Shown here one piece after another: positions 18,914 to 61,427 of a stretch of 64,000 bases of DNA (its first letter is position 1; each line of letters begins with the position of its first letter). Position numbers and translations under genes: made by a program. This DNA comes from an uncultured SAR86 cluster bacterium (GTDB lineage Bacteria > Pseudomonadota > Gammaproteobacteria > Magnimaribacterales > AG-339-G14), in NCBI GenBank assembly GCA_902632605.1, contig CACPDB010000004.1:32511-96510 (forward strand), written 5' to 3'. A model generated the notes under the pieces. It did no database searches and was not told the origin of the DNA. It saw only the letters and a program-made list of their open reading frames with translations.

Positions 18914-18965
18914 TTAATTATTTAATCTAAACAGAAAATAAGTATTACACACTTCTTCAAAAAAA

Positions 18966-21203: not shown

Positions 21204-21976
21204 TGTTTTCTCCGATTCACTTCTTCTTCTGATTTTTTTATGAAATCTACCACCACTTTGTCATTTCTTTGAAATGAAAATTCTTTAGAATCTCTATTAA
21301 ATACTTGCCATGATGATGTGTTTTGTTCATGAAATAATTTTATATCTTTGTTTTTAAAGAAAGGGATTAGAAACATTCCTGCTAGAAAACCTCCAATGTG
21401 CGCAAAATAAGCTGTTCCTCCATCCATATCAAGAGATCCTGGAATACTGAAAAATTGTAAAATAAGCCAAAAACCCAGAACCAAAAAAGCAGGTACTCTG
21501 ATCATTTGAATGATTATGATAATAAATACCAAACATTTTACATTAGCTTTTGGGAATAACATTAAGTAGGCTCCTAAAACACCCGCTATTGCTCCACTTG
21601 CACCAACCATTGGAATTTGAGATGTCGGGTCCACTAATCCCTGACAAAGTGCTGCAATTGTTCCGCAAAGAAGATAGAAGATAATAAATTTAAGAGTCCC
21701 CATAGAGTCTTCTACATTGTCTCCAAAAATCCATAAATAAAGCATGTTTCCGACAATATGTAATAGCCCGCCGTGAAGAAACATTGAGGTATAGATAGTA
21801 AATGATGAATAATTAGAAAAAAAATCTGCCGGAATAAAACCAAAATTGTAAAAAATCGAAGGATTCATTTGACTTAAGTATTGAAGAACAAATACAAAAC
21901 TACAAAGCCCAATCAAAAAATAAGTAACATAAGGAGTTGAAGAACTCGGATTATCGTCCGATATAGGAAAAAACAT
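21200..21976 (-). CDS. Rhomboid-family intramembrane serine protease
   Basis: Catalytic Ser motif GASGAIAGVLGAY and His motif AHIGGFLAGM; HGGLLHIVGNM in TM2. Confidence 0.85.
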   Translation of the reverse strand: MFFPISDDNPSSSTPYVTYFLIGLCSFVFVLQYLSQMNPSIFYNFGFIPADFFSNYSSFTIYTSMFLHGGLLHIVGNMLYLWIFGDNVEDSMGTLKFIIFYLLCGTIAALCQGLVDPTSQIPMVGASGAIAGVLGAYLMLFPKANVKCLVFIIIIIQMIRVPAFLVLGFWLILQFFSIPGSLDMDGGTAYFAHIGGFLAGMFLIPFFKNKDIKLFHEQNTSSWQVFNRDSKEFSFQRNDKVVVDFIKKSEEEVNRRKH

Positions 21977-21978
21977 AT

Positions 21979-23424
21979 TTAGTAACCCAAATCTTTAACA
22001 GCTGACTCGAATTCGTCTCTGGTTATTGTGTAAAAGTAAATAAAAATAAGTCCGCCAATATTTAATATTGGACCAATAATGCAAATGAATAGAACTAAGT
22101 TATTTACTGGCTCTTTCATCTCTTGAATAGAAGCCTCTGTATTGCCAAAGCCTAAAAATTGAAGAACAAAACCTAAAATAAATACACCTAATCCTGAAAA
22201 CACTTTCTGAAATAATCCTGGACCAGCAAGAAATAAACCTTCATCTCTTCTTCCTGTTTTTTTCTGAGAATCCTCAACGACATCAAAAACCATTGATATT
22301 AAGATCACCCAGCCCATCACGGATAAAACGTCAGTGATACATTGATGTGAAATCATAATCCACCACAATGCATTTGATCCATTTACGGGGAAAGTTTGAG
22401 CTTCAAAAAGTGGATCTATCAATCTTAAAGTAAAAGGTATGTAAGAGATTAATACTGTCGCTGTTAAGGCAAATAGAGCAATGTTCTTTTTTTCTCTACC
22501 TTGGGAAATCACTACTGCAATAATTGCACCAATAATTGCAGAAACGCCTCCTGCTAAGGGAAATATAGAAATATCTGAAGGCGTCCATTCCCAAAAATAA
22601 ATACTTATATAGTTCCCTACTCCAGTATTTAATCCAAGAAATAAAGCATAAAGACATCCTCCAAAAAAAATCATAAGCCAAGACTTATTGGATAAAGTTT
22701 CTATAACTTCTCCAAAGACTTGTTTCAATTCAACATTTGAAGTTTCAGGCACAACATGAAGATCTTTAATATGTTTATGAGTGCTTGAGGCAGCTATAAA
22801 ACCTAAAACCAGAGTAATAAAGCCCGCAAAATATGCTAATTTTTCATATCCCTCAGGATTCAAATATGCTCTTGATCCCATAAAACCTGATGTTTCAGGA
22901 AGAAAAAACTCTAACATCACATAACCTATTAGAATCGCTCCTCCATAACCAAAAAATAATCCCATAGCATTTAAAGTATTTCTGCGATCGTAATCCTTGG
23001 TTAGCTCTGGTCCTAAAGCAGCTCTGGGTGTTTCGAAGAAGGTAATTGCAAGTCGAATGCTAACTGTCAAAATCAATAATTTTAAAAAAAGGTATGTTTG
23101 ATCATAAGATGAAGGCGGAATAAATAGTAACCAAATACAAAATGCCAAGGGAAAAATGCTGAGATAAATGAAAGGATGTCTCCTACCTAATTTTGACTTA
23201 AATCTATCTGACCATACGCCCACCAAAGGATCAGAAAAGGCATCAAAAAAAAGTGAAATCCCAAGTGCAATAGATGCTAGATAAGGCTCTAAACCTAAAA
23301 CTTGATTGTAATAGAGAAGTACCCAAGTACCAAAAATTACATTTTTTATCCCTACAACCCCAGAACCAGCTGAATGTAAAAAGAGTGTTGTGTTGGAAAC
23401 CTCTATGTTCTTATTTTTCGACAT
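21979..23424 (-). CDS. GPH-family cation symporter (paralog of 17486-18913)
   Basis: DAFSDPLVGVWSDRFKSKLGRRHPF signature; about 12 TM. Confidence 0.8.
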   Translation of the reverse strand: MSKNKNIEVSNTTLFLHSAGSGVVGIKNVIFGTWVLLYYNQVLGLEPYLASIALGISLFFDAFSDPLVGVWSDRFKSKLGRRHPFIYLSIFPLAFCIWLLFIPPSSYDQTYLFLKLLILTVSIRLAITFFETPRAALGPELTKDYDRRNTLNAMGLFFGYGGAILIGYVMLEFFLPETSGFMGSRAYLNPEGYEKLAYFAGFITLVLGFIAASSTHKHIKDLHVVPETSNVELKQVFGEVIETLSNKSWLMIFFGGCLYALFLGLNTGVGNYISIYFWEWTPSDISIFPLAGGVSAIIGAIIAVVISQGREKKNIALFALTATVLISYIPFTLRLIDPLFEAQTFPVNGSNALWWIMISHQCITDVLSVMGWVILISMVFDVVEDSQKKTGRRDEGLFLAGPGLFQKVFSGLGVFILGFVLQFLGFGNTEASIQEMKEPVNNLVLFICIIGPILNIGGLIFIYFYTITRDEFESAVKDLGY

Positions 23425-29041: not shown

Positions 29042-30163
29042 ATGAAAACATTCTATGTAAACGTCCGCTATTTAATAGTTCCTGTAATGACAGTTTTAAC
29101 TATTTGCGGACTTTTCTTGGGAGGTATCTATGCTTGGACCGGAGTTTTTCTTTTTGGTCTAAATATCATATTAGATACTGCAACCAAAAATATTCATTTA
29201 AGAGCAGACTTTGATGAAAATGGTAATTCCTTTGGAATTAAAACTTTTCAATATATCGTGATGTATCTGATGTTGCCAATTTTCATTGTGCTGCAATGTA
29301 CATTAGGTTGGAATTTGTACCAATTTACAACTTCGAGCGCTGTAACAATTGAATCGCTCATTGGGGCAATTCTCTCTACAGGATTATGGGCTGGTCTGGG
29401 TATTATTTATGGTCATGAGTTATCTCATAATAAGAAAGAAGGTTTTTCTGTATCCAGAGCTGTCATGGCTCTAAGCGGTGCTTCACACTTTACTTATGCT
29501 CATGTCTATCAACATCATTTGGAGTTGGGTCATCAGAACGATCCAGCTACTGCACCAAGAGGAAGAAATGTTTATTGGCACACATGGCTGTCTCATTTTG
29601 GTCAATCAAAATTTTCTTTTGATTTAGAAAAACAAAAACTTGAAAGACATAACAAATCATTTTTTTCCTTAGACAATAAATGGATCTTGGGTTATTTGTA
29701 TAGCTTGCCATCCATAACTCTTTTCGTCTGGTCTGGAGGAATAATCGGCATTGTTGCTCTTGTTGTGGTTTGGAGTATTTCTAATTTTCTTTTAGAAGCT
29801 TTAAATTTCATGGGTCATTACGGGCTTATACGTGAAGCTGGCAAACCAGTTGAGCATAGGCATTCCTGGGATAACGATAATCTTTTTACCAGTTGGTTTT
29901 TTATTGAAATTGGAAGACAAGGGGATCATCATGTTAGAGGAGAAACTTACTTTTGGGAATTAGATGAAGTAGGAGCTCCAAATTATGAAATTGGTTATTT
30001 CACTTTATTTCTGTTGACCCTCATTCCACCATTTTTTAGAAAATATACTCAAAAATATTTAGACGAATGGGACAATAATCAAGCTTCCGTTGCTGAAAGG
30101 CAAATTGCCAAAGATTATTACGAAGATACCAAACACTTATCAAACAATATTTTAGTTGCTTAA
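29042..30163 (+). CDS. AlkB-family integral-membrane diiron hydroxylase (alkane 1-monooxygenase-like)
   Basis: His boxes HELSHN, HVYQHHLELGH, the HYG motif NFMGHYGL, and GDHH. Matches the AlkB/XylM layout (HELGHK, EHNRGHH, HYGL, HSDHH). Confidence 0.75.
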   Translation: MKTFYVNVRYLIVPVMTVLTICGLFLGGIYAWTGVFLFGLNIILDTATKNIHLRADFDENGNSFGIKTFQYIVMYLMLPIFIVLQCTLGWNLYQFTTSSAVTIESLIGAILSTGLWAGLGIIYGHELSHNKKEGFSVSRAVMALSGASHFTYAHVYQHHLELGHQNDPATAPRGRNVYWHTWLSHFGQSKFSFDLEKQKLERHNKSFFSLDNKWILGYLYSLPSITLFVWSGGIIGIVALVVVWSISNFLLEALNFMGHYGLIREAGKPVEHRHSWDNDNLFTSWFFIEIGRQGDHHVRGETYFWELDEVGAPNYEIGYFTLFLLTLIPPFFRKYTQKYLDEWDNNQASVAERQIAKDYYEDTKHLSNNILVA

Positions 30164-30468
30164 TGTTTGGTCTTTTTAAAAAAAATAAAAGTTTCACTGC
30201 AAAACTTGCTGATTATGATCAAGAATTTATTGTTGAACCAGGTGACTCTCTTCTCACTGGTGCATTAAAGGCAGGTTTGCCTTGGCCGAAAAGGTGTCAG
30301 GTAGGAAGTTGCGGAACTTGTAAATGCAAAATTATTGATGGCAAAACAAGAGCTGAAATAGACTTCTCTTACGTATTAAGTCCTGATGAGTTGAATGATG
30401 GTTACGCTTTAGCTTGTCAGACTTCATTGAAATCAGATATCTCGGTTGCAGTTAATTTAATTGATTAA
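30163..30468 (+). CDS. Plant-type [2Fe-2S] ferredoxin (stand-alone)
   Basis: CQVGSCGTCKC...ALACQ cluster-binding motif. The ATG overlaps the upstream stop (TAATG at 30161-30165). Confidence 0.85.
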   Translation: MFGLFKKNKSFTAKLADYDQEFIVEPGDSLLTGALKAGLPWPKRCQVGSCGTCKCKIIDGKTRAEIDFSYVLSPDELNDGYALACQTSLKSDISVAVNLID

Positions 30469-30479
30469 AGGAGAATATT

Positions 30480-30689
30480 ATGGAAAGTATTAAAGCAATT
30501 AGTTTAATGGTGCTTTGGACAGTTTTGAGTTTATATGCTCTTCACTACTTGGGTGCTTTTGAAAACTTCAGAAATCCTTACTTAATAGTTCCAATTTCCT
30601 TTTCTTTATTAGGTATTCATATGTTCAATATGTTTATCTATTTTAAAGTTGGTGGAAATAAACCTTATGAGTGGAAAAAACTGAACTAG
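30480..30689 (+). CDS. Small 2-TM membrane protein, unknown function
   Basis: 69 aa with two hydrophobic helices. SD GGAG lies 7 nt upstream. Last gene before the terminator. Confidence 0.5.
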   Translation: MESIKAISLMVLWTVLSLYALHYLGAFENFRNPYLIVPISFSLLGIHMFNMFIYFKVGGNKPYEWKKLN

Positions 30690-30695
30690 TTCTTT

Positions 30696-30743
30696 GAAGG
30701 GGACGTCTATTCTCTCCCAAAATAAAGACGTTCCCTTCTTTTT
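30696..30743 (+). terminator. Intrinsic terminator after the AlkB-ferredoxin operon
   Basis: 13-bp stem GAAGGGGACGTCT (30696-30708) / AGACGTTCCCTTC (30726-30738) with one G-U pair and a 17-nt loop, followed by TTTTTATT. Confidence 0.6.
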
Positions 30744-31797
30744 ATTCTAGAAAACTTACTGCATCCAGATGCAAAGCCTGCCAACCTGATCTTTCTGCCA
30801 TCACAGCAAACATCTCATCACCTCGTTCAGTTCTTTCGACAATCATGGAAGACATAACAGCCATTAAAAAACCCACAAAGGAGCCCCGTCGATAATCATT
30901 CCATGCTTCTTCGAATGAATAACTATCTTCAACATTTAGCAAAGTGTGGTAATCCTTAACTAATTTTTTTTCAGCATCAGCCCGATCATTTGGGTTTTTA
31001 AAGCTAGTAGAAATGCAATAAGCAACATCATTAAGAGGTAATCCTACTGCTGCAGTTTGCCAATCTAGAAGAATCGCCCTATTGTCATAATCATAAAATA
31101 AAATGTTATCTAGTCTTAAATCTCCTTGGACTAAAGTCATAGGTCCTTCTCTTACTTCAGAATATTTTTCATAATTCGCAATCAATGCATCTCCCATTTC
31201 AAAAATATTTTTACTGATTCTTCCTTGATATCTATTTTTCCACTCTGGATATACTGCAGGTAGCAAATCTGTAACGAATTGTTTTCTTTCTTCACTTACA
31301 CCGTAAGTAAGCCAAGAATAGGACAAGAGATTCTCATTGTTCCAATAACTTTTGTGTAATGCTGCAGCTTCTTCTAGAATCTTGGAAACCTCTGAAAATG
31401 TACAACCTTCCATTTGAGGAATTTGTTTTGCAGGATGCATATCTTCTAAGAGTAATATTCCATCATCTGACTCAGGATTAAAATCAGAAAAATATAATTC
31501 TGGAACTCTTGCAGAACATTTTTTTGATAAATATTTATAAAAAGAGGTTTCAATTTCATAAAGATGTAAATTTCTTGCAGTATCTCTACTGGATTGGTCG
31601 GCAGCAGGACACTTAGCTATGAGTGATGTGGGAAGATTGTTTTTTTCTTTCCAGTCTAAATTTACTCTAAAACAGTCTCCAACTTGACCGGAACCTACTG
31701 GCTTAAATTCAAAGCCTTTTAAATACTCTTCTGAAGAATTGAATAGACTAGTAATGAATTTTTTAGAAAATTGACTTGGGTGTTCTAACATTCTCAA
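30742..31797 (-). CDS. APH/ChoK-fold phosphotransferase (EcKL/DUF1679-like kinase)
   Basis: Catalytic loop VQGDLRLDNILF and metal-binding LLDWQ; 351 aa. Confidence 0.7.
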   Translation of the reverse strand: MRMLEHPSQFSKKFITSLFNSSEEYLKGFEFKPVGSGQVGDCFRVNLDWKEKNNLPTSLIAKCPAADQSSRDTARNLHLYEIETSFYKYLSKKCSARVPELYFSDFNPESDDGILLLEDMHPAKQIPQMEGCTFSEVSKILEEAAALHKSYWNNENLLSYSWLTYGVSEERKQFVTDLLPAVYPEWKNRYQGRISKNIFEMGDALIANYEKYSEVREGPMTLVQGDLRLDNILFYDYDNRAILLDWQTAAVGLPLNDVAYCISTSFKNPNDRADAEKKLVKDYHTLLNVEDSYSFEEAWNDYRRGSFVGFLMAVMSSMIVERTERGDEMFAVMAERSGWQALHLDAVSFLE

Positions 31798-32551: not shown

Positions 32552-32627
<76 letters not shown>

Positions 32628-32628
32628 A

Positions 32629-33024
32629 TTAATTTCTTTGTTTGCAATCAAAGTAGGAGTAAGAATTTACACTGATTGCTTTATTATCCCAAACATTTTT
32701 ATTAAGAGATGATTGAAAACTCTTTTTATCAATGACTAATTTGTTTTCAATAGCAAAAGTTCTTTTATTGCCTTTGAAGTATCTGCCTTCATATACTTTG
32801 AGTCTATTTCTAAATTTATAAGGAATTGCTTCGGAACCAAAGAAAATGGTTTTTGCTTTGAGATTAATATCTATTACTTCTGTATCTTTTGAAGCCATAT
32901 CTTTTCCTTCAATTCCTACTAAAGTTACATCGCAGTCTAAAATAATATTTTTGGAGAATACCTGACTAGAGAAAAAGATACTGATGAAAAATATCTTAAG
33001 AGGTAAAAGTACTGCCAGCTTCAT
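32629..33024 (-). CDS. Hypothetical secreted protein
   Basis: Start taken at MKLAVLLPLKIFFISIFFSSQVFS (signal-peptide-like). The stop lies 1 nt from the tRNA-Ala 5' end. Confidence 0.5.
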   Translation of the reverse strand: MKLAVLLPLKIFFISIFFSSQVFSKNIILDCDVTLVGIEGKDMASKDTEVIDINLKAKTIFFGSEAIPYKFRNRLKVYEGRYFKGNKRTFAIENKLVIDKKSFQSSLNKNVWDNKAISVNSYSYFDCKQRN

Positions 33025-33727
33025 AAAAGATTTCAATCTTATCGTCTCTAAAATCATTATCAAGTTTATTTAACTTTAAAAAATGATTTACAAAACCGGT
33101 ATTTTTTAGAGGATTGGACCCAGTTATAAATAATTTATTTGCACTTAATAAGTTACACGCAGCAATTGTATTTTTTAAGTTCATACTAAGAGTTAACAAC
33201 CCAAAAAATTTAACCTCCTCTGCGGTAAGGATTGCAACATCTGCTTTGATTTCATTTTTATGAATAACACTTTTATTAACGACATGCCCCTCATGAAATA
33301 CGGTAAAACCTTCCGCATTGGAAATGACTAAACAATTCGCGGTAGTATTATAGGGAAAGCCAGCAGGATAAGCGCTAACTTTTAGGTTCCCTATTGAATT
33401 GGAATTGGATGAAAAATTATTGATCTTATTCTTAAGATTTTTCTTTACTAGGATGGATTTGACTTGAGAAGAACACCAAATGTCGGCATCGGGAAATTCA
33501 TTTAATGTCTTAAAATGCAGGTGATCTTCGAATGGTGCGGTAATAATAATATTCTTAACTAAAGAGTTTTCCTCCAAGGTTAAGAGAGATTTTTTATCTT
33601 TTGTTCTTTGTAAAAACCAGCCTTTTCCATCGACAAGAGAGAAATCAAACCAAGGATCAATTAAGAGAGCCTCATTACCCTCTTCTATATACCAAGATTG
33701 ATAATCGTCTACTTTTTTTACTTTCAT
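32996..33727 (-). CDS. MBL-fold (Lactamase_B_3-like) hydrolase-like protein, degenerate metal motif
   Basis: Start reset to MKVKKVDDYQSWYIEEGNEALLIDPW. The track's upstream 83 codons are antisense to the serine-hydrolase gene. FEDHLH replaces HxHxDH. Confidence 0.45.
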   Translation of the reverse strand: MKVKKVDDYQSWYIEEGNEALLIDPWFDFSLVDGKGWFLQRTKDKKSLLTLEENSLVKNIIITAPFEDHLHFKTLNEFPDADIWCSSQVKSILVKKNLKNKINNFSSNSNSIGNLKVSAYPAGFPYNTTANCLVISNAEGFTVFHEGHVVNKSVIHKNEIKADVAILTAEEVKFFGLLTLSMNLKNTIAACNLLSANKLFITGSNPLKNTGFVNHFLKLNKLDNDFRDDKIEIFYEAGSTFTS

Positions 33728-33770
33728 TTTTCCATAAATTAAAGGTATTCTATCTTTTTTGGGAGATAAA

Positions 33771-34976
33771 ATGATAAGTGGATACTGCGATGAAAAATTC
33801 TCTTCTGCCAGAGAACTATTTGAAAATAACCTTAAATCTGGCTTCGAAAGAGGAGCGGCGATTACCGTTGAAATTGAAGGTGAAAAAGTAATAGATCTTT
33901 GGGGAGGTATTGATTCCGAAGAAGAAAATACAACCTGGCAAGAAGATACAATCGTAAATGTTTTTTCTACCACCAAAGGTTTGGCAGCCGTATGTCTCCT
34001 ACAGCTAGTGGAAGAAGGAAAAGTTAATCTGGATGACCCGGTAGCTAAATATTGGCCAGAATTTGCTCAGGAAGGAAAAGATAAAATCCCTGTAAGATAT
34101 TTGTTCTGCCACAAATCTGGTCTGTGCGGTGTAACTAAGCCGTTACCAGATGACGCCTATTATAATTGGGACGTCATGGTTGATGCATTAGCAGCACAAA
34201 AACCTCAATGGGAACCTGGAACAAGACATGGTTATCATGCTTTGACTTATGGTCACTTAATTGGAGAAATGGTTAGAAGAGTAACTGGTCAATCTATTGG
34301 GGAATATTTTAATGAAAAAATTGCCGAACCTTTAAATCTTGATTTCTGGATTGGGTTGCCAGATGAACAATTTAATAAAGTAACCGATATCCAGCCTAGT
34401 TTATTTCCATTGTGGACTAGAATGGTGGCTCCAATTTTTAAAATCATCCCTAAGAGTATGTTACGTGGTGATCTTGCTTTGATTAAAGATTTCGAAGATC
34501 CTACTACTATAGCGGGTTCGGCTTTTAACAATCCAAAGATGGAGATTAAAAATCCTTTTTATGCAAATACCCGAGAATGGCGAAAAGCTGAGATACCTGC
34601 TGCCAATGGACATGGAAGTGCTAGAGCTGTAGCAAAATTTTATGGTGTTTTAGCAAATGGCGGTGAACGTGATGGTGTTCATCTACTAAATCCAGAAACA
34701 ATAGATATGGCGCGTCAAACAGAATCAGAAGGTTCCGACTTAGTTTTGGCTAATCTCCAAACTCGTTTTGGGTTAGGTTTCATGCTTGGCTCAAAGGACG
34801 TCTCAATGGGTCCAGCTGAAGGCGCTTTTGGCCATGGTGGAGCAGGTGGTTCTCTTGGTTTTGGAGATCCAGATAATCATGTTTCAATTGGTTTTGTAAT
34901 GAATCAAATGCACCCCGGAATAACTGCTTGGGAAACTGCAACTTCATTTATTGAAAAAGTATATGAGAGTAAGTGA
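33771..34976 (+). CDS. Class C beta-lactamase-fold serine hydrolase (EstB-like esterase/amidase)
   Basis: Nucleophile motif FSTTKG (S-x-x-K). ATG at 33771 lies 5 nt after GGGAG (33761-33765). Confidence 0.8.
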   Translation: MISGYCDEKFSSARELFENNLKSGFERGAAITVEIEGEKVIDLWGGIDSEEENTTWQEDTIVNVFSTTKGLAAVCLLQLVEEGKVNLDDPVAKYWPEFAQEGKDKIPVRYLFCHKSGLCGVTKPLPDDAYYNWDVMVDALAAQKPQWEPGTRHGYHALTYGHLIGEMVRRVTGQSIGEYFNEKIAEPLNLDFWIGLPDEQFNKVTDIQPSLFPLWTRMVAPIFKIIPKSMLRGDLALIKDFEDPTTIAGSAFNNPKMEIKNPFYANTREWRKAEIPAANGHGSARAVAKFYGVLANGGERDGVHLLNPETIDMARQTESEGSDLVLANLQTRFGLGFMLGSKDVSMGPAEGAFGHGGAGGSLGFGDPDNHVSIGFVMNQMHPGITAWETATSFIEKVYESK

Positions 34977-35796
34977 GAATTTATCCAAAAATGGTATCGG
35001 AGTAGAAGTCTCTGATTTTTCTTTGTCTGATTTAACAGAAGAGAATATAAGTTTTTTACGTTCAAAATGGGTTGAATATGGATTGATAGTTTTTCCTAAT
35101 CTTCCTCTGACACATGATGAATTCAAAGACTTTGCATTAAGTTTTGGAAATTTTGGCGACGATCCATTTATCTCCTCTCTTCCAGATTATCCCAATATTG
35201 CGGAGATAAAGAGAAGTGCTAATGAGAAGGCTACCCCTTTTGGAGGTACCTGGCATTCGGATTGGTCTTTTATGAAAAAACCCCCTTCTGCGACATTATT
35301 GCATTCAAAAATTATCCCTCCAGTTGGTGGAAACACTTTGTTTGCTAACACAGAAAAATCTTTTGCTGCTCTTCCGGAAAAGATGAAAAATAAATTAAGG
35401 AATCTCAAAGTAATACATTCTGCAAAAATTCCTTATGCCGATGATGGTTTTTATGCTCTTGAAAAAGAAGAACGCTCGATGAAAATCCTTCCATCTAAAG
35501 AAGCCAAAGCTGCCTTTTCTCATCCAATGATTAAAATTCATCCTGAAACCGAAAAAGAGTGTTTATTCATTAACCCTGTATATACGATCAATATCGAAGG
35601 TTTCTCAGAAGACGAATCCCAAGAACTTTTATGGGAGCTTTATGAACATATGATTCAAGATAAATTTGTTTATGAGCATGTATGGAATGAAGATATGTTA
35701 ATCATGTGGGACAATCGTACTGTTATGCACCAGGCATCTGGTGGCTACGATGGTTATGACAGATTGTTACATCGCATAACTCTTGCGGCAGTTTAA
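34963..35796 (+). CDS. TauD/TfdA-family Fe(II)/2-oxoglutarate dioxygenase
   Basis: Facial triad H-x-D in GTWHSDWSF, distal His in TVMHQA, C-terminal RLLHRIT. Confidence 0.8.
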   Translation: MRVSENLSKNGIGVEVSDFSLSDLTEENISFLRSKWVEYGLIVFPNLPLTHDEFKDFALSFGNFGDDPFISSLPDYPNIAEIKRSANEKATPFGGTWHSDWSFMKKPPSATLLHSKIIPPVGGNTLFANTEKSFAALPEKMKNKLRNLKVIHSAKIPYADDGFYALEKEERSMKILPSKEAKAAFSHPMIKIHPETEKECLFINPVYTINIEGFSEDESQELLWELYEHMIQDKFVYEHVWNEDMLIMWDNRTVMHQASGGYDGYDRLLHRITLAAV

Positions 35797-35799
35797 ATA

Positions 35800-37788
35800 T
35801 TAATCGCCCTTTTCCAGGTATCTTAAATCTTGAGCTGATAGTTCGATATTCGTTGCCTCGATACAGCTGTCCAACTCGAAAAAATTTCTAGGTCCAACTA
35901 GAGGGTAAGCAGATATTTCAAGGTTTACAACATAAGAAAGTGCTATTTGTATTGGTTGACAGTTTTTTTCTTGAGCTAACTTGATAGTTCTTTTTCTTCT
36001 AGCAAGATTTAGCTCATCGTGCCAAACTCTTTTTTCTTCTTCATCTGTTGGATTAGCAAAGTGTTCATTCGCAGCAAATTCTACTTGGTTAACAAAAAAA
36101 CCTCTTGCTTGGGAAGACCAGGGAAAAAGATGAATATTGTTATCTTTGAGATATTTTAAGTAAATCTCATCGCAAGAAATACAACCAGGCCAAACAGGTT
36201 CAATCATTTTAGCCAAACTAAAATTGTTACTTAAAACTTTGAATCCGACTTTCTCTTGTTCGTTTGCATAGTCGTTTGCTGACTTGAAACGTTCCAGTTC
36301 CCAATTAGATGCACCTAAAACATCTATCAATCCATCGTGTTTGCATTCATTCAAAGCATCGATGAATTCGTTCACAGGAACTTCGAGATTATCTCTATGT
36401 AGGCAGTAAATATCTAATTTATCTATATTGCCTCTAGCTAAAGATTCTTCAATTTGAGGTTTGATTTTATCTGGAAAACAATCTGGAGTGTGTGCTCCTT
36501 TGCCCAAAACAACTACATCTTTTAAGTTCCTAGAATTTATCCAATCACCCAAATATTTGTCACTCAATCCATGATTGTAAATAAAGGCAGTATCAAAAAC
36601 CTTGCCGCCCTTACTGTAGTAATAATCAAACATAGCAAACGCATGAACTTCATTTATTTGATTGTCGCACCCAAAAACTATTGGGGATATTTCTTTATCC
36701 AATTCAGGAATTTCTATTGTATTTAAGTCTTTTGATGGTTTTGAAAAAACTGAACTTTTTAATGACGATGTATTTATTGAGTTAGCTGGATATACTACTT
36801 TTAATTTATTAAGCCATTTATCAAGCCAAATTGAATTACTCAAAGAATCAGCATGTGGCATAAATGAAGATTCAATTTTTCCTGCCTTAATACAAGAGCT
36901 TGCTTCGTCAATTTCCCGGGTAAACAAACCAACATCATCTGTGACTTCGATGACCTTCTCTTGGTTGTTTTCTAAAATTTTAATTTCTGCTTTTTGTCCT
37001 TGAAATTGACCACAATGCCATGGTTCTTTGACAAAAATTTGTTTGTCACCAGATGAAATTCTTAACGAATTTTCGTATTCTTCATTTATTGCTGATTGTA
37101 TTGAAGCTCTGATTTTTGGACTAAACTCAAGGTCCGCTTTTGCATTCAAGTCGATATTATTTGAAGATAACTCCCCTGATGCAGATATGGTTAACGGATC
37201 AGAAAAAGAATTTTCCATTAGATTTCCTGCTATCAACCTAACCATGGATAGAGGATAACAACCAATATCCAAGATTGAACCTCCCCCCAATTCTGGATTT
37301 TTAAGTCGATGGCTTTCTTCAACATCAGCAACAAATCCGAAAGAAGACTCTATAAATACTTCTTGGTTAGCGAATTCTTGTTTAACAAATTCGAGCATTT
37401 TATGAGTTAATGGATGACATCTATACATAAAAGCTTCCATAAAAAATAAATTCTGTCTCCTTGATTCATTAAGTAAAATCATTGCTTCAGTTGAATTCAT
37501 TGTCATTGGTTTTTCACAAAGAAGGTTTTTACCGCTTCTAAGTGTTTTTAGACTTAAATCAAAATGACTGTTATGGGGAGTTCCTATATAGATTGCATCT
37601 ATGTTCGAATCATTAAGTAAGGCATTATACGAGTCGTAAGTTTCAACTCCGTATTTATCAGAAAAATGTTTTAAATTTTTAGATGATCTACTTGCAACTG
37701 CTGCCAATTCAGCTTCTTTTGAATATCTAATAGAGTCGCAGAAAGCCTTAGAAATATTTCCTGTACTGATAACGCCCCACTTAATCAT
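35800..37788 (-). CDS. Fusion protein: N-terminal Gfo/Idh/MocA NAD(P) oxidoreductase + C-terminal aldo/keto reductase
   Basis: N-terminal half: IKWGVISTGNIS...EKPMT (Gfo/Idh/MocA). C-terminal half from about residue 365: PIVFGCDNQ...GGKVFDTAFIYNHGLSDKYLG...YCLHRD (AKR). ATG at 37788 is preferred over TTG at 37803. Confidence 0.75.
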   Translation of the reverse strand: MIKWGVISTGNISKAFCDSIRYSKEAELAAVASRSSKNLKHFSDKYGVETYDSYNALLNDSNIDAIYIGTPHNSHFDLSLKTLRSGKNLLCEKPMTMNSTEAMILLNESRRQNLFFMEAFMYRCHPLTHKMLEFVKQEFANQEVFIESSFGFVADVEESHRLKNPELGGGSILDIGCYPLSMVRLIAGNLMENSFSDPLTISASGELSSNNIDLNAKADLEFSPKIRASIQSAINEEYENSLRISSGDKQIFVKEPWHCGQFQGQKAEIKILENNQEKVIEVTDDVGLFTREIDEASSCIKAGKIESSFMPHADSLSNSIWLDKWLNKLKVVYPANSINTSSLKSSVFSKPSKDLNTIEIPELDKEISPIVFGCDNQINEVHAFAMFDYYYSKGGKVFDTAFIYNHGLSDKYLGDWINSRNLKDVVVLGKGAHTPDCFPDKIKPQIEESLARGNIDKLDIYCLHRDNLEVPVNEFIDALNECKHDGLIDVLGASNWELERFKSANDYANEQEKVGFKVLSNNFSLAKMIEPVWPGCISCDEIYLKYLKDNNIHLFPWSSQARGFFVNQVEFAANEHFANPTDEEEKRVWHDELNLARRKRTIKLAQEKNCQPIQIALSYVVNLEISAYPLVGPRNFFELDSCIEATNIELSAQDLRYLEKGD

Positions 37789-39121
37789 TTTTTCTTGCCT
37801 CAATATTAATCAGTAATTCTTTATGATACGCAGAATTAATTGGATAAAAATACATTAAGAAGATGGAAATAGCGATACCCGAAGCAGGTATTAAAGACAT
37901 AATATTTTTCAAACCACTAAGAGTTTCAGGAGTTTGAACTTCATTTGGTGAAAAGTTTATCGAGGTTAACAAAATTCCTAAAACTAAGGCAGCAACAGCG
38001 ATTGATGATTTTTGAGCAAATGTCATAAATCCATACAAAGAGGATTCGCTCCTAATTCCTGATTTCCACTCGCCATATTCAATGGTATCCGGCAGCATTG
38101 ACCAAAATAATACGCCTCCTGCTCCTGAAGCTATGCCTATCAGGCAAACTATAATGATTAGTTCTTGTAGTGAGCTGATTTGATAGAAATAAAATAATGC
38201 AAATGCAAGCAATAGCAAGGACATTGATATTTGCCAGGTATTTCTTTTACCAATTTTCAAAGATACGTATGACCAAAAAGGTATTGATGCAAAACTACTT
38301 AATCCGCTTAAGCCTAAGACCAATCCTTGATAACTATGTAAGTCCAAAGCATATTTGATGTAATAAATTAAATTTTTATTAAACATTATCGTGGTAGAAC
38401 CTAAAATAAGTATGGATGAAAAAACAATCCAGAAGGGATAATTTTTTAGAATCGATAAAATTAGCTTTGATATCGGAGGATAAGTTTCACCAATTTCTTC
38501 GGTAGAAGATTCTTGCACGGATGCATATGTAATAAAGAGAATAATGACAGCAAAAGAAGCTGCAAAACATGATAAATAAACTATCCCAAGGGACTCATCG
38601 TTTTGACCGAAGAAGTTAATTATTGGAAATCCCAGAGAAGACATCAATAACGTCCCAAACGATGCTCCTATCATTCTTGCAGTGGTCAACTTTGTTCTTT
38701 CTTCACTGTCTGAAGTAATCCTTGGAGTAAGAGAGGAATAAGGAACACTGACAATCGTAAAACATGTTCGATGAAAAACATTAACAAAAAATAAACAAAT
38801 AAAAAGTGATAATCCTGTTAAAGGAGGAACCCAAAACAATAAAACAAAGGATATAGCTAGTGGAATCGTTCCAAAAAAAATATAGGGTCGATATTTACCT
38901 CTTTTTGAGGATGTTCTTTCCGCCAAATAACCCATGAATGGGTCGGTGACCGCATCCCAAGCAATACCAAGGGCATATATCCAACCAGCTAAGTATGGAC
39001 TGATGCCCACAATATCGGTGTAAAAATATAAAAGATAAAGACCAACTCCTGACCAATAAAAACAAATAGCAATATCGCCTATTCCATAGCCGATTCTCTG
39101 TCTATTGGATAATGGGTTCAA
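37781..39121 (-). CDS. GPH-family cation symporter (third paralog)
   Basis: DAVTDPFMGYLAERTSSKRGKYRPY signature; about 12 TM. Confidence 0.8.
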   Translation of the reverse strand: MNPLSNRQRIGYGIGDIAICFYWSGVGLYLLYFYTDIVGISPYLAGWIYALGIAWDAVTDPFMGYLAERTSSKRGKYRPYIFFGTIPLAISFVLLFWVPPLTGLSLFICLFFVNVFHRTCFTIVSVPYSSLTPRITSDSEERTKLTTARMIGASFGTLLMSSLGFPIINFFGQNDESLGIVYLSCFAASFAVIILFITYASVQESSTEEIGETYPPISKLILSILKNYPFWIVFSSILILGSTTIMFNKNLIYYIKYALDLHSYQGLVLGLSGLSSFASIPFWSYVSLKIGKRNTWQISMSLLLLAFALFYFYQISSLQELIIIVCLIGIASGAGGVLFWSMLPDTIEYGEWKSGIRSESSLYGFMTFAQKSSIAVAALVLGILLTSINFSPNEVQTPETLSGLKNIMSLIPASGIAISIFLMYFYPINSAYHKELLINIEARKND

Positions 39122-40260
39122 TTACTTAAAGATTCAATAATCTCTTGTTTGTGTTCACCCAATGCTGGAGCAGGTTTATCATTGAACATTTCGTTGTCGT
39201 TAAATTTAGTTGGATATCTTAATGCTCGCATCTTGCCTTGAATATCACTATTTATAGATTGGAAAAGATTGTTTGCCTCAATCTGCGGGTGGATCATCAA
39301 CTCATCCAAAGAGATGGTTTTTGAACATGGTACATCTTCATCCTGTAATTTTTGCAGAGCGTCGTCCACAGTTAATGACTCAAAAGTTGCCAAAGATTTA
39401 ACCAACTCAACCATATTTTCACTTCTTGCAAAGGCATTATTAAATCTTTCATCTTCAATATACTCTGGTAAACCTAGAGCTCTGAAAATTCCAAACCATT
39501 GAGCATCTGATAAAGCTGCAATGGAAAGATAACCGTCTTTGCACTTATAAAGACTGTAAGACTTTGTTAAAGGAGGTAACGTTACTACATCATCATCCAA
39601 CAAAGTGTGATTCATCATGCCATCTGGCCAAAGAAAAAAAACTGCTGAATCAATCATAGAAAGGTTGAGACGATCTGCTATACCGGTTCTTTCTCTTTTA
39701 AAAAGAGCAGATGATAGTGACTGACAAACTGTATAAGCAGTTATCTTGTCGCACAAAAGCGTTTTTATGTAAGCGGGTTCATTGAGGTCAGATTGAATAT
39801 CTGTAGCTCCTGCCATAGCTTGAACTACGTGATCATATGCAGGTGCAGATGAATACGGTCCCGAATTACCGAAACCGTTTATGGAGGCATAAATTAATTT
39901 ATCATTTATTTTTTTACAATCACTCTCTCCAAGTCCTATTTTTTCCATGACTCCAGGCCTAAAATTATTGATTAAAATATCTGCATTGGAAATTAATTTT
40001 TTTACTATTTCCAAATCATCTTTTTCTTTTAAATTTAAATCTATCGATCTTTTCCCTCTATTGCAGTTTGCAAATAACGCAGACACTCCCCCTTTTTGAG
40101 TACCCAAGTAACGCATAGGGTCTCCTATGCCCGACTGTTCTATTTTTATTACTTCAGCGCCTTGATCGGCCATCATCATAGTCGCTAATGAAGCTGTAAC
40201 AATTGTAGAAATTTCCACAATTTTTACTCCTTCTAAAGGTTTGGCATAAGTCATTCTCAC
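39118..40260 (-). CDS. Family III CoA-transferase (CaiB/BaiF)
   Basis: KPLEGVKIVEISTIVTASLATMMMADQGAEVIKIEQ; overlaps the downstream transporter gene by 4 nt. Confidence 0.8.
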   Translation of the reverse strand: MRMTYAKPLEGVKIVEISTIVTASLATMMMADQGAEVIKIEQSGIGDPMRYLGTQKGGVSALFANCNRGKRSIDLNLKEKDDLEIVKKLISNADILINNFRPGVMEKIGLGESDCKKINDKLIYASINGFGNSGPYSSAPAYDHVVQAMAGATDIQSDLNEPAYIKTLLCDKITAYTVCQSLSSALFKRERTGIADRLNLSMIDSAVFFLWPDGMMNHTLLDDDVVTLPPLTKSYSLYKCKDGYLSIAALSDAQWFGIFRALGLPEYIEDERFNNAFARSENMVELVKSLATFESLTVDDALQKLQDEDVPCSKTISLDELMIHPQIEANNLFQSINSDIQGKMRALRYPTKFNDNEMFNDKPAPALGEHKQEIIESLSN

Positions 40261-40312
40261 TCCCCCGAAATATTATTTATAATTAAGATACTTCGTCTTG
40301 TAGACATATTCA

Positions 40313-41614
40313 ATGGGGGAAATGATGGATAACTTAAAAGACTTATCAGAGCTTGCATGGCAAGGTAAATTAGATACTAAATTTGAGCATCATCCAGTTC
40401 ATACTTTTTATGAAGGTTCCACCGAACTTGCTCATAATTTACTAGGACTCAAAGGAATTGGTGGATTTTATGTTGTTGATACAAATGATGGGTTAGTAAT
40501 GATAGATGCAGGAAGTCATTTAGATATAGATTCAGCATACAGTGAAATAAAGAAATGGAGACCGAACAGCACTGTTAGAGCAGCTGTTTTTACTCACCAT
40601 CATGTAGATCATATATTTGCTACAAAAAAATTTGATGAAGATGCAGATAAATCTAACCAAAAAAGACCGGTTGTTTACAGCCATAAATTATTACCCGATC
40701 ATTTTGATAGATACAAAAAAACACTTGGATGGAACACTGCAATTAATAAAAGGCAGTTTGCGATTAATGTTCCACATTTCAAATGGCCAGAAGAATATCG
40801 CTACCCAGATATAACCTTCGAAGATGAATATACTTTCAAAGTTGGAGATTGTACTTTCGAACTTTTTCATGGTCGCGGTGAAACAGATGACCATACCTGG
40901 GTTTACATTCCTGAAAGAAAAATTTTAGCACCTGGAGATTTATTCATTTGGGCAGTGCCCAATGGCGGTAATCCGCAAAAAGTTCAGAGATATATTAGTG
41001 ATTGGTCAGATGCTCTGAAATTGATGATGAAAAAGGATGCAGAAATTATGATTCCGGGACACGGACTACCGATATATGGAAAAGATAGAATTCAGGAAGC
41101 TTTATCGACTACAGCGGATTTTTTAAAAGATATTGAAGATCAAACTCTTGAACTAATGAATCAAGGTAAGTCTTTAAATGAGGTTTTTCATCAAGTAAAA
41201 ATTTCGCCTGAAATAAAAAATAAACCTTGGTTAAGACCTGTTTATGACGATCCAAAGTTTTTAATAAGAATGATCTGGAGAAGGTATGGAGGTTGGTGGG
41301 ATGGTGAATACGATAGATTATTACCGGATACGAGAGAAAATGAAGCAAAAGAATGGGTTGAGCTTAGCGGTGGAATAGATGCAATCATAGACAAAGCTTT
41401 AAATAATTTAAAAAACAAAAAATATAAATTAGCAGCTCATCTAATTGAAGTTGCTTATTATGCTGATAAAAAAAATGAAAAGTTGCATGATGCTAGAAAA
41501 GAAATATATGCAACTCTCTCTAAAGAACAGGATTCTTCAATGGCTAGAAATATTTTTAATCATGCTAATTTAGCTTCAAATGAACTAAAAAGGGATTTAG
41601 CCTCAGATAATTAA
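40313..41614 (+). CDS. Alkyl/aryl-sulfatase-like MBL-fold protein (SdsA1/BDS1-like, lacks SCP2 tail)
   Basis: MBL motif THHHVDH, and the alkyl-sulfatase dimerisation-domain pattern [17 protein letters not shown]. Confidence 0.7.
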
Positions 41615-41793
41615 AGTTTTTCAAGCTCTTCTAGTGATAATTCACGAGCTTCATTTATGAGCATGATGGGAATGCCATCTCGAATTGGATATGCCAATTT
41701 AGCCTCTTTGCTAATCAATTCATCTCCTAGTTGAATTAGAGATGAATGTGTTTTAGGGCAGACTAAAATTTCTAGTAATTTTTGATTAATCAT
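41611..41793 (-). CDS. Trm112/YcaR (UPF0434) family protein
   Basis: [10 protein letters not shown]...[11 protein letters not shown]; 60 aa. Confidence 0.85.
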
Positions 41794-43147
41794 TTAAGGT
41801 GTATTCTATCCTTTTTAAAGAAGTTTCTTTGCCCAATATAAATAAAAGTTCTGAAATAGATGGAGCATTTTCCTTACCCGTTAAGATTAATCTTAAAGGC
41901 TTTCCTAATTCAGGAAACTTTAGATCATTGGCTTGTAAAAACTCTTTGATATATTTTTCTATCTTATTTTTTTCAAAATCAATTTCTTTTAATTGCTTAC
42001 TAAATTCAGAAAATAATATTTTTTTATTGGCATCGATATTTAGCGAATCGAACTTAGTATGAGGTTCTTGAAAAAAATAAATTGATTCTTCAGCAATCTG
42101 ATTCAAAGAGTTTGCTCCCTGTGCTAACAAAGAGATTGCTAATTCTCCATTATCTATTTGATTAAAATCAACTCCTGAAGTTTCTTTGACTTTTGAAATT
42201 AATTCTTCAGAGGTTAAAAAATTTAAATATTTATTGTTATACCAATCTAATAAATCTTGAGAATATTTAGACGGTGAAGAATTAACATCCTTTAAATTAA
42301 AAATTTCTTGAAGTTTGTTTAAGGAAAATATTTCTTCTTCTCCGTAAGACCATCCCAAACGTACTAAATAATTTATTAAAGCATCACTCAAATACCCCTT
42401 TTTTTTATAATCCAAAATATCGTCTGCTCCATCCCTCTTAGAAAGTCTTTTGCCTGATTCAGCCAAAACCATTGGAAGATGAGCATAACTCGGAATCGTT
42501 GCACCTAATGCATCTAAAACGTTAATTTGCTTGAGCGTATTCGTAATATGATCGTCTCCTCTAATTACCGTTGTAATCTTCATATCCATATCATCAACGG
42601 CAGCAGAAAAATTATAAGTTGGAGTTCCGTCGCTTCTAAGAATTATAAAATCATCAAATTCTTTATTATTTATAGAAATATCTCCTAAGATTAAGTCTTT
42701 AAAATTTGAGTCACCATCTATAGGAAATTTAAATCTTAAAACCATACCTTCTGCAAATTCTATATTTGCATCTCTATTCAATCCGTTGTACTTGGGTTTT
42801 TGTTTTTTAGCTATTTGATTCTCTCTCATTTTAGTAAGAACCTCTTCGCTACAATTACAAGCATATGCAAAACCTTTTTTATAAAGCTCAATTGCAAGTT
42901 CTTTGTGTTTCGCAATCTTTTTTGACTGAAATACAGGATCAGAATCAAGTTTAATGTTCATCCACTCAAGAGACTTAAGAATAGAATCAACATATTCTTC
43001 TTTGGAGCGCTCTTGATCTGTATCCTCAAACCTTAGCAGAAACTTTCCTTGATTAGCTTTTGCAAATAAAAAAGAGAATAATGCAGTTCTTGCTCCACCT
43101 ATATGCAGATGTCCTGTCGGGCTAGGCGCAAATCTAGTTATTTCCAT
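41786..43147 (-). CDS. gltX: Glutamate--tRNA ligase
   Basis: [10 protein letters not shown] (HIGH) and RLSKR (KMSKS) motifs. Confidence 0.95.
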
Positions 43148-61328: not shown

Positions 61329-61345
61329 AATATCCTTCATTTTTT

Positions 61346-61422: not shown

Positions 61423-61427
61423 ATTAG

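Follow-up and report, generated by a model that had tools for sequence, protein, structure and literature searches.

A conserved unit of three genes lies within a block of seven adjacent genes in a 64-kb stretch of a SAR86 chromosome (the whole stretch is referred to here as the window; G+C content ~32%). The three genes encode a metallo-beta-lactamase (MBL) hydrolase that resembles alkylsulfatases, a family III CoA-transferase and an Fe(II)/2-oxoglutarate (2OG) dioxygenase of the TauD/TfdA family. To this triad the window's lineage has added an importer of the GPH family, a double oxidoreductase in which a Gfo/Idh/MocA domain is fused to an aldo-keto reductase (AKR) domain, a carboxylesterase and a degenerate MBL-fold protein, and in the same lineage the dioxygenase gene has been inverted and now lies behind the esterase gene. 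The block is best explained as an accessory catabolic locus that one SAR86 sub-lineage has inherited vertically. Regarding its function, the reading preferred here, to which a probability of roughly 0.4 is given, is that its genes make up a single triad-centred catabolic module, which would strip an imported O-substituted amphiphile and deliver the resulting acid to CoA metabolism.

The evidence for the triad comes from the comparison of SAR86 genomes of increasing distance. In 13 SAR86 species, whose fusion proteins are 76–95% identical, the whole region is collinear and the gene overlaps are kept; since this collinearity also covers the housekeeping flanks, it is no proof of linkage. Purifying selection acts strongly on the block enzymes: in those two of the 13 species that are most distant, the esterase, dioxygenase, GPH symporter, CoA-transferase and MBL hydrolase are 80–94% identical, compared with 73–81% for gltX. 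Identical or near-identical copies of the genes are present in TARA and other ocean assemblies, and also in genomes labelled SAR86.

A second SAR86-type lineage, of low G+C content (L105, L106, L112 and L113), has a gltX product that is 57–58% identical to that of the window. Its gene order is mltD-gloB-rnhA-dnaQ-gltX-MBL(-)<>CoA-transferase(+)-dioxygenase(+), so that the divergent arrangement of the CoA-transferase and MBL hydrolase genes is kept in these four loci, and the CoA-transferase gene immediately precedes the dioxygenase gene, at a distance of 4 bp. The identities to the window proteins are 66–68% (MBL hydrolase), 59–60% (CoA-transferase) and 56–62% (dioxygenase). No GPH symporter, fusion, family VIII esterase or degenerate MBL gene is found at this site, and in L112 the gene of the beta-lactamase fold that adjoins the triad encodes an unrelated lipoprotein paralogue. 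Beyond the triad, on its far side, the order is rearranged, and cupredoxin, thiolase and DUF1295 genes are found there; the DUF1295 gene of the window is located 30 kb off. In a possible third lineage, represented by the contig L103, the starts of the MBL hydrolase gene (62% identity) and of the dioxygenase gene (60%) are 99 bp apart and divergent. Given that the three genes remain linked at ~60% identity despite a different gene order, the triad of MBL hydrolase, CoA-transferase and dioxygenase is the conserved unit. The original prediction had treated all seven genes as one island; co-occurrence across relatives extends to these three members, and not to the GPH symporter, the fusion, the esterase or the degenerate MBL.

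Several observations weigh against a common function of these genes. The flank gltX-dnaQ-rnhA-gloB-mltD is also conserved, which means that the conservation of the triad may partly be plain synteny, and the contig L103 is just 695 bp long. A further group of dioxygenases (L107/L109; 56% identity) has no MBL hydrolase or CoA-transferase gene nearby, and outside the SAR86-type lineages no two of the genes were found together in 66 fusion loci (except L078), 72 MBL loci and 5 dioxygenase contexts. The four transcription directions present in a streamlined genome also allow independent functions. Tblastn searches of plasmids with the MBL hydrolase, dioxygenase, GPH symporter, esterase and CoA-transferase revealed no plasmid with two homologues side by side.

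The block occupies the interval between a tRNA-Ala(GGC) gene and gltX, and its features, in window coordinates, are as follows.

32552..32627, minus strand: tRNA-Ala(GGC), left edge of the interval that holds the block (ARAGORN, Rfam)
32996..33727, minus strand: degenerate MBL-fold protein, 243 amino acids (Pfam Lactamase_B_3)
33771..34976, plus strand: family VIII carboxylesterase, EstA-type, class C beta-lactamase fold (PF00144)
34963..35796, plus strand: TauD/TfdA-family Fe(II)/2OG dioxygenase, member of the core triad (Pfam E 5.8e-57)
35800..37803, minus strand: Gfo/Idh/MocA-AKR two-domain oxidoreductase, a single open reading frame (ORF) of 667 amino acids (Pfam GFO_IDH_MocA and Aldo_ket_red)
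37781..39121, minus strand: GPH/MFS_2 cation symporter, presumed importer (TIGR00792)
39118..40260, minus strand: family III (CaiB/Frc/SUGCT-type) CoA-transferase, member of the core triad (CoA_transf_3)
40261..40312, no strand: divergent intergenic region of 52 bp between the CoA-transferase operon and the MBL hydrolase gene
40313..41614, plus strand: short-form alkylsulfatase-like di-zinc MBL hydrolase, 433 amino acids, member of the core triad (Lactamase_B and Alkyl_sulf_dimr)
41786..43147, minus strand: gltX (glutamyl-tRNA synthetase), right edge of the interval, followed by dnaQ, rnhA, gloB and mltD (translation, flank Pfam)

Families were assigned with Pfam and NCBIfam, and the Pfam scans of the window took in all ORFs of at least 120 amino acids. 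The seven genes and the families that the original prediction had attributed to them were all confirmed where it had placed them, and its view of the block as a set of accessory catabolic genes is supported. The block is not a single operon; it consists of two translationally coupled units and two single genes. The esterase and dioxygenase genes overlap by 14 bp, the unit formed by the CoA-transferase, GPH symporter and fusion genes has overlaps of 4 bp and 23 bp, and the remaining two genes stand alone, each divergent from one of the two coupled units. A signal peptide is absent from all the block enzymes. The probable true starts include 33727, 33771 (with a GGAG ribosome-binding site ahead of the ATG) and 34963 (the public gene call), and several starts in the mechanical ORF list are over-extended. 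The best promoter-like site near the divergent intergenic region (TTCTCA-18-TATAAT, 10/12, at 40254-40283 on the plus strand) is a consensus match only, and a promoter and terminator scan gave no more sites than shuffled sequence.

The G+C content at third codon positions of the block genes is 0.22–0.28, within the range of the window (0.234 ± 0.028), and therefore the block is no compositional island; overall G+C content likewise carries no signal of foreign DNA. In E. coli K-12 (L102) there is a matching interval, alaX/alaW-yfeC-yfeD-gltX, in which tRNA-Ala(GGC) and gltX likewise share one strand; it has two small accessory genes inside and measures 1.1 kb as opposed to the 9.2 kb of the window. 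Since the E. coli interval holds accessory genes as well, the space between tRNA-Ala(GGC) and gltX seems to be a long-standing site for accessory DNA.

The dioxygenase has the catalytic residues of its family, given that H98, D100, H256, T125 and R267 align with the iron and 2OG residues H99, D101, H255, T126 and R266 of E. coli TauD (EcTauD), and R271, the counterpart of EcTauD R270, is kept. The substrate pocket differs. The TauD positions are replaced as H70D, Y73I, N95G, V102W, S158P, F159Y and F206Y, so that of the set that binds taurine (His70 and Arg270 on the sulfonate side, Tyr73, Asn95 and Ser158 on the amine side) Arg270 alone is kept; the orthologues in L014 and L112 show the same loss. 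The sulfonate-binding His of TauD presumably corresponds to His81 of AtsK, and the dioxygenase has Asp at that place. In TauD it is His70 and Arg270 that contact the sulfonate (PMC12951627). The protein scores 154.6 bits against the TauD equivalog model NF007104, whose cut-off is 313 bits, and a true TauD was rejected on account of both the replaced taurine-site residues and this score.

In the predicted structure (AlphaFold2; pLDDT 96.8) the top solved relative is RdpA/AAD-1 (146 bits, TM-score 0.93, root-mean-square deviation 2.0, identity 28–32%). TauD gives 98–106 bits and a TM-score of 0.86–0.88, with 24–25% identity to EcTauD, and AtsK gives 83 bits and a TM-score of 0.77 at 22–24% identity (Foldseek). 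The S2 family of SulfAtlas is defined by at least 30% identity to AtsK over ~300 residues together with the motif HxD/E...H (PMC5066984); the dioxygenase has the HxD...H motif and its identity to AtsK is below 30%. An AtsK-type S2 sulfatase was thus rejected as well, on this identity and on a score under those of RdpA and TauD. No full-length relative with more than 47% identity was found outside the protein's own cluster in 1.84 billion cluster representatives. In a neighbour-joining tree built without AtsK, TfdA, SdpA and SqoD sequences (AtsK was compared by identity), the dioxygenase forms part of its own clade, distinct from TauD and from RdpA alike. In most members of this clade the pocket signature is Asp, Trp, Tyr and Tyr, and the signature D/W/P/Y/Y is kept between the two SAR86-type lineages. 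Judged by its sequence, the dioxygenase belongs to a separate, uncharacterised TauD/TfdA subclade, and is neither a member of a sulfur-enzyme cluster nor a plain TfdA/RdpA orthologue. What stands of its earlier description as a TauD/AtsK "sulfur" dioxygenase is the TauD/TfdA family and the catalytic residues; the features that define TauD, AtsK and SqoD are lacking.

The genomic contexts of five representatives of the dioxygenase clade are heterogeneous. The closest annotated relative (44% identity) is encoded in an AraC-regulated cluster on a plasmid of Variovorax boronicumulans (L085 5701-14767), together with EthD, an aldehyde dehydrogenase, a ligase annotated as 3-(methylthio)propionyl-CoA ligase and an ABC transporter, a composition that hints at an ether or thioether acid being dealkylated oxidatively. 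On a contig of 35% G+C (L104 3061-8341) there is also a truncated copy of the dioxygenase, of which residues 147-276 align at 61% identity; it lies ~3 kb from a large serine recombinase and may be a relic that a mobile element has carried along.

The MBL hydrolase consists of a Lactamase_B domain (1.1e-18) followed by an alkylsulfatase dimerisation domain (Alkyl_sulf_dimr, PF14863, 5.8e-28, residues 289-418). The metal motif HHHVDH is located at residues 95-100 and the GETDD motif is intact; the Glu of the latter and H250 are invariant across the short forms and YjcS. Its best solved relative is Pisa1 (1.6e-22), and SdsAP, YjcS and SdsA1 (6e-16) are also matched. Among the Pisa1 residues that we take to form the sulfate site (His317, Asn318, Thr321, Arg323, Arg328 and Tyr417), N318, R328 and Y417 are kept, three are replaced (H317P, T321N and R323Q), and the region has a one-residue deletion. 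The change of His317 to Pro is tolerated by the SulfAtlas pattern, and the Arg-Gly pair that is 99% conserved in the S3 sulfate loop is Gln-Lys here (PMC5066984). The protein ends at residue 433, directly after the dimerisation domain, and so the SCP2-like domain is missing; this substrate-recruiting domain is a defining element of SdsA1 (PMC5066984), and no SCP2 gene adjoining the MBL hydrolase gene was detected in the window. Membership of the S3 family is set at a minimum of 30% identity to SdsA1 over ~600 residues (PMC5066984). The MBL hydrolase has no SdsA1 match of ~600 residues and is 23% identical to YjcS, which places it outside S3 as SulfAtlas delimits that family. Its earlier label, "SdsA1-type", is right as to the MBL and dimerisation domains and needs correction in that the protein is a short form with no SCP2 domain; its sulfate loop is altered in part.

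This enzyme is a member of a short-form family (35–68% identity) that is found in SAR86, Actinobacteria, Rhizobiales and haloarchaea and that has a loop of its own, PN(A/G)GNPQKVQRY. On Haloferax and Halogeometricum plasmids the short MBL gene is accompanied by genes for an MFS transporter, a zinc-dependent alcohol dehydrogenase, an aldehyde dehydrogenase and a stand-alone SCP2 protein, and also by genes for a fatty-acid CoA ligase or a 3-hydroxyacyl-CoA dehydrogenase. In Haloterrigena it lies beside a GMC oxidoreductase and an MFS transporter, and on a metagenome contig of 43% G+C (L147) it is found with an alpha/beta hydrolase, a pyrroloquinoline quinone-dependent alcohol dehydrogenase and an enoyl-CoA hydratase. 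Since three unrelated families of alcohol-oxidising enzymes adjoin the short MBL, these neighbourhoods suggest that the enzyme releases an alcohol that is later oxidised and activated with CoA, that is, that the short form is an alcohol-releasing ester hydrolase that feeds CoA metabolism. Many other homologues, those in rhizobial and Kitasatospora contexts included, have no informative neighbours, and the clustering of neighbours in 72 MBL loci outside SAR86 gave cytochrome-oxidase synteny in Actinobacteria alone, with ORF calls that are noisy because of high G+C content. The loci with alcohol-oxidising neighbours are L087 5932-12428, L090 5932-12311, L083 6944-11060 and L147 3889-8290. The separate SCP2 gene in two of the haloarchaea may represent a split SdsA1 architecture. 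The haloarchaeal MFS genes were considered as counterparts of the GPH symporter and rejected, as they belong to MFS_1 and are unrelated to GPH.

The third member of the triad, the CoA-transferase, matches PF02515 over residues 9-370 (324 bits, E 1.6e-96), and its PDB matches are formyl-CoA transferase (Frc, YfdW; 1e-51) and SUGCT (1e-47). It reaches no equivalog cut-off in NCBIfam, and the catalytic Asp, placed by eye, is probably that of LLCDKITAY.

Of the genes that surround the triad in the window, the esterase (PF00144, 5.6e-70) has the STTK (S-x-x-K) motif and no signal peptide. Its solved relatives are led by the carboxylesterase 8j5v (9e-90), followed by the fenoxaprop-P-ethyl hydrolase 7y3z (1.5e-84), and EstA-type esterases match at 1e-80 to 1e-90, as opposed to 1e-13 for AmpC models, all of which identifies it, at the level of family, as a typical cytoplasmic family VIII carboxylesterase. 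In the breakdown of aryloxyphenoxypropionates, fenoxaprop-P-ethyl hydrolase acts one step ahead of the RdpA-type cleavage. The pairing of esterase and dioxygenase is thus suggestive of fenoxaprop hydrolase and RdpA, by analogy; the esterase is nonetheless missing in the second lineage. The degenerate MBL-fold protein (Lactamase_B_3, E 4.6e-8) has a metal motif decayed from HxHxDH to APFEDH and, at 70–95% identity in the 13 SAR86 species, is the least conserved gene of the block.

The symporter is a firm member of the GPH family (TIGR00792, 328.6 bits; cut-off 231). It had been compared with the sulfoquinovose importer YihO; its identity to YihO (28.6%), YihP (28.6%) and UidB (27.7%) is alike, ~28%, and the top bit score is that of UidB. 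The nearest homologues on plasmids (35–36% identity) are found in Alteromonas and Caulobacter clusters that contain esterases and glycosidases; the Caulobacter cluster includes GH106 rhamnosidases, tannase/feruloyl esterases, carboxylesterases and beta-lactamase-fold hydrolases. By analogy, these contexts point to acylated glycosides or glycolipids. The closest of the plasmid homologues, on pAltI4 of Alteromonas sp. I4 (L099 5049-18849), lies in a cluster with a ceramidase-like protein, a GH3 glycosidase, two carboxylesterases, GntR, acyl-CoA dehydrogenases, an APH-like kinase and a TonB receptor. This cluster looks like one for glycolipid or glycosphingolipid catabolism, and it has a gene for a Cap15-like effector in its middle.

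The fusion protein matches DHDH with its Gfo half (2.4e-26; dihydrodiol/xylose-dehydrogenase-like) and IolS with its AKR half (2.4e-19). The AKR catalytic tetrad D-Y-K-H is intact, and hence the AKR domain is probably active. The search recovered 287 relatives, and the full-length homologues examined (33–40% identity) come from Planctomycetota, Verrucomicrobiota, Lentisphaerae and Alphaproteobacteria (Rhodobacterales and Hyphomicrobiales). Within 10 kb of the gene in 66 distant loci (L015 and L017-L081) there is no TauD, GPH, alkylsulfatase-like or beta-lactamase-fold homologue, a CoA-transferase (30% identity) occurs in L078 alone, and no neighbour family is common to more than 10 of the 66. 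The fusion is therefore a widespread, self-contained, stand-alone gene that in the SAR86 lineage of the window has been set behind the GPH gene, and in view of the lack of shared neighbours it was rejected as an anchor for a pathway. The literature search for Gfo/Idh/MocA-AKR fusions found no paper.

Having described the individual enzymes, it is possible to consider the pathway put forward in the original prediction, which held that the oxygenase, the AKR-type reductase and the importer recall the oxidative routes for sulfoquinovose, in which 6-oxo-glucose is formed and then reduced. None of the three comparisons favours it. SqoD, the sulfoquinovose dioxygenase, has Arabidopsis At3g21360 as its nearest relative and a triad of the His-Glu-His type; it binds its substrate via Gln120 and Trp253 and shares 15.5% identity with E. 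coli TauD (PMC12951627). In the block's enzyme the WHSD motif gives HxD, not HxE, and the match to At3g21360 (1y0z) is limited to E=0.036 over 107 residues; no SqoD entry (9YU*) appears in the top 50 fold matches, from a library that extends to April 2026 and in which the presence of the 9YU* entries is unverified. A close homologue of SquF/SmoB is the marker of both oxidative routes (PMC10507154). The AKR half, however, is of the IolS type and not like SmoB/SquF: its top PDB matches are IolS, 1ynp and DepB, enzymes of the AKR11/13 type, SmoB (7BBY-7BC1) is not in the best 60 of 79 PDB matches, and 4R9O, the search model with which SmoB was solved, gives E=0.1 (PMC8795539), so that the relation does not go beyond the superfamily (PMC8795539, PMC10507154). 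The symporter is not YihO-specific, and the Pfam scans of the window found no GH31, TRAP or SmoF-type binding protein, which agrees with the earlier remark that a GH31 enzyme is absent; they found no TauE-type exporter or sulfite oxidase domain either. The fusion is, in addition, unlinked to any oxygenase in 66 genomes. The sulfosugar model is, in silico, largely refuted. Together with its sister idea, the scavenging of taurine or alkanesulfonates by a true TauD, which the replaced taurine-binding residues and the score of 154.6 against 313 bits oppose, it is very improbable indeed; in its favour there are the Pfam family names and the automatic "taurine dioxygenase" labels of public data only.

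What is shown are the assignments to families, the motifs, the overlapping genes and the co-location of the triad; from these, the following order of reactions and class of substrate may be proposed. The symporter would import an amphiphilic O-substituted compound (a carboxylic ester, a sulfate ester or an ether), from which the esterase would take off acyl or alkyl ester groups. The MBL hydrolase would cut an alkyl-O-X ester and free an alcohol, with sulfate as the candidate for X, since it is the sole precedent in this branch of the superfamily, unsupported as it is by the family-defining residues. The dioxygenase would hold an anionic group via Arg271 and hydroxylate the carbon beside the heteroatom, after which a hemiacetal-type intermediate would collapse, as in the chemistry of RdpA or AtsK. 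The Gfo/AKR protein would interconvert the alcohol and carbonyl products, the CoA-transferase would activate the resulting acid for further breakdown, and the purpose of the whole would be the acquisition of carbon, not the assimilation of sulfur. The release of sulfate by the MBL hydrolase is possible: the architecture and the neighbours are alkylsulfatase-like, and the lack of SCP2 together with the modified loop for sulfate indicates that it would not be a sulfatase of the known kind.

The catabolic module just described has to be weighed against other accounts of the same genes. In one of them, which is rather unlikely, no sulfur is released: the esterase would free a 2-(alkoxy/aryloxy)-carboxylic acid, the RdpA-like dioxygenase would cleave its ether to give an alcohol or phenol and a 2-oxo acid, and the MBL hydrolase would act on a non-sulfate ester or thioester. 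The best solved relatives of the coupled esterase and dioxygenase are indeed consecutive enzymes of aryloxyphenoxypropionate breakdown (7y3z and RdpA/AAD-1), the sulfonate-binding His of TauD is missing, the Variovorax homologue of the dioxygenase keeps company with EthD, an aldehyde dehydrogenase and an acyl-CoA ligase, and the MBL hydrolase falls outside S3 (PMC5066984). However, an identity of just 28–32% to RdpA and a clade separate from those of RdpA and TauD do not favour RdpA chemistry, the second lineage has no esterase and couples the dioxygenase to the CoA-transferase instead, and family VIII esterases are promiscuous, so the fenoxaprop match may show membership of the family only. 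Another account, which corresponds to the general idea of the original prediction and is unlikely, makes the block a pathway for organosulfate esters (alkyl, steryl or choline-type sulfates), in which the MBL hydrolase would represent a new, short type of class III sulfatase, the dioxygenase would be an AtsK-like class II sulfatase, and the carbon skeleton would be oxidised and activated with CoA. Every characterised protein that combines an MBL domain with Alkyl_sulf_dimr is an alkylsulfatase, HxHxDH, the Glu ligand and 3 of the 6 sulfate-site residues of Pisa1 are retained, MBL hydrolase and dioxygenase are co-conserved in the SAR86 lineages, and the neighbours of short-form homologues include alcohol dehydrogenases, aldehyde dehydrogenases and, among the haloarchaea, SCP2 encoded as a separate gene. 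In the degradation of sodium dodecyl sulfate SdsA1 is coupled with alcohol oxidation, and the contexts of the short-form MBL mirror that logic. It is also predicted that SAR86 attacks sulfolipids (PMC11582366). Nevertheless, the MBL hydrolase has no SCP2 domain, His317, Thr321 and Arg323 are replaced and the Arg-Gly of the S3 loop is Gln-Lys (PMC5066984), an Asp takes the place of the sulfonate-binding His in the dioxygenase, the identity of which to AtsK is 22–24%, and the block has no sulfate or sulfite exporter. SAR86 also lacks sulfite reductase (PMC11582366), which is irrelevant if carbon is the goal.

That the genes have merely been packed together in a streamlined genome, with no common pathway, is quite unlikely. 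The transcription in four directions, the lack of pairwise co-occurrence outside the SAR86-type lineages, the equal synteny of the housekeeping flanks and the stand-alone life of the fusion elsewhere all agree with such a juxtaposition; yet the adjacency of the triad survives rearrangement in the second lineage, with a gap of 4 bp between the CoA-transferase and dioxygenase genes, the MBL hydrolase and dioxygenase genes abut on L103, and there are overlaps within both units of the window. A bolder proposal, and a long shot, is that SAR86, unable to reduce sulfate, uses an unrecognised trio of enzymes (an SCP2-less class III "sulfatase", the TauD-family subclade and the CoA-transferase) that strips O-linked substituents, for which alkyl, steryl and choline-type sulfate esters are candidates, from imported amphiphiles in the cytoplasm in order to obtain carbon. 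The pocket of Asp, Trp and two Tyr would then possibly be a cation-binding cage. A muramic-acid lactyl-ether etherase, the dealkylation of dimethylsulfoniopropionate or thioethers, carnitine or gamma-butyrobetaine metabolism and choline-O-sulfate have also been considered, as speculation. The single catabolic module around the triad remains the reading preferred here.

The interest of the block rests on the abundance of SAR86, which ranks with the most abundant heterotrophs of the surface ocean, and on the fact that marine surveys, also those of SAR86, take "tauD" (KEGG K03119) to mark the use of taurine (bioRxiv 10.1101/2024.12.10.627767). Papers on SAR86 genomes list such genes as tauD, note the absence of sulfite reductase and mention that another role is possible; because SAR86 cannot assimilate sulfite, the role of tauD was already in doubt (PMC11582366). 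A copy of "tauD" with no taurine site and with an alkylsulfatase-like hydrolase and a CoA-transferase as constant partners indicates a different substrate. If the bolder proposal of an unrecognised trio of enzymes is true, the SAR86 "tauD" of sulfur-cycle surveys would mark a different and new pathway, for organosulfates or onium compounds. Three uncharacterised and widespread groups of enzymes are also defined (the short-form alkylsulfatase-like MBL, the D/W/Y/Y subclade of TauD and the Gfo/Idh/MocA-AKR fusion), and a tempting but wrong sulfoquinovose annotation is removed.

Elsewhere in the window there are genes for a P450, DUF1295, SDRs, GST/MAPEG proteins and a desaturase-ferredoxin pair, and this content of lipid- and steroid-type catabolic genes fits the lipid, steroid and aromatic niche that has been proposed for SAR86 (PMC11582366). 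A second family III CoA-transferase, 28% identical to that of the block, overlaps an MMPL/RND-type transporter with a sterol-sensing-like domain (12719-16298), and thus the pairing of a CoA-transferase with a membrane transporter occurs twice within 30 kb. Two more GPH/MFS_2 paralogues flank a DUF3604 protein and a rhomboid protease (17486-23424); the three GPH transporters of the window are 27–33% identical among themselves. Just upstream of the block (29042-31797) there are a fatty-acid-desaturase/alkane-hydroxylase-like gene, its own 2Fe-2S ferredoxin and an EcKL/APH-type small-molecule kinase, and the kinase and an adjacent ORF of 132 amino acids are missing in some close SAR86 relatives (L004, L006, L013 and L014). 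The listed ORF of trigger factor (60036-61424) runs over tRNA-His (61346-61421), so its true start must be further downstream, and several other listed ORFs are over-extended by TTG or GTG starts.

Compared with known systems, the MBL hydrolase resembles SdsA1, Pisa1 and YjcS in that a binuclear-zinc MBL domain, which has HxHxDH and the Glu ligand, precedes the alkylsulfatase dimerisation domain. It differs from these long forms in size (433 amino acids as opposed to ~650), in lacking both the SCP2-like domain and a signal peptide, in an identity of ~23%, and in the sulfate loop, for which a different stretch of 12 residues replaces the (M/L)HNxxTxRGAxxR of SdsA1, Pisa1 and YjcS (SdsA1 Ala298-Arg317). 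The esterase is like the family VIII enzymes of the EstA/EstB type in its full-length matches (1e-80 to 1e-90), its S-x-x-K nucleophile and its cytoplasmic location, and is set apart by the confinement of its gene to the window's lineage. With the sulfo-SMO (SmoC/SquD and SmoB/SquF) and sulfo-SDO (SqoD and SquF) systems the likeness exists on paper only, as an oxygenase, an AKR-fold reductase and an importer close together; those clusters use ABC or TRAP transporters and often a GH31 YihQ (PMC10507154, PMC12951627, PMC8795539), whereas the AKR of the block is fused to a Gfo/Idh/MocA domain in a gene that stands alone in other phyla. The dioxygenase shares with TauD and AtsK/Rv3406 the Pfam family, the fold and all the conserved catalytic residues, and differs from TauD in having D, I, G and P where TauD has H70, Y73, N95 and S158. 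With RdpA/AAD-1 it has in common the HxD...H triad and the pair of Arg residues for 2OG and the substrate anion, and it is distinguished from them by its separate clade and by its pocket, D/I/G/W/P/Y/Y in the dioxygenase and V/L/G/S/V/F/Y in RdpA.

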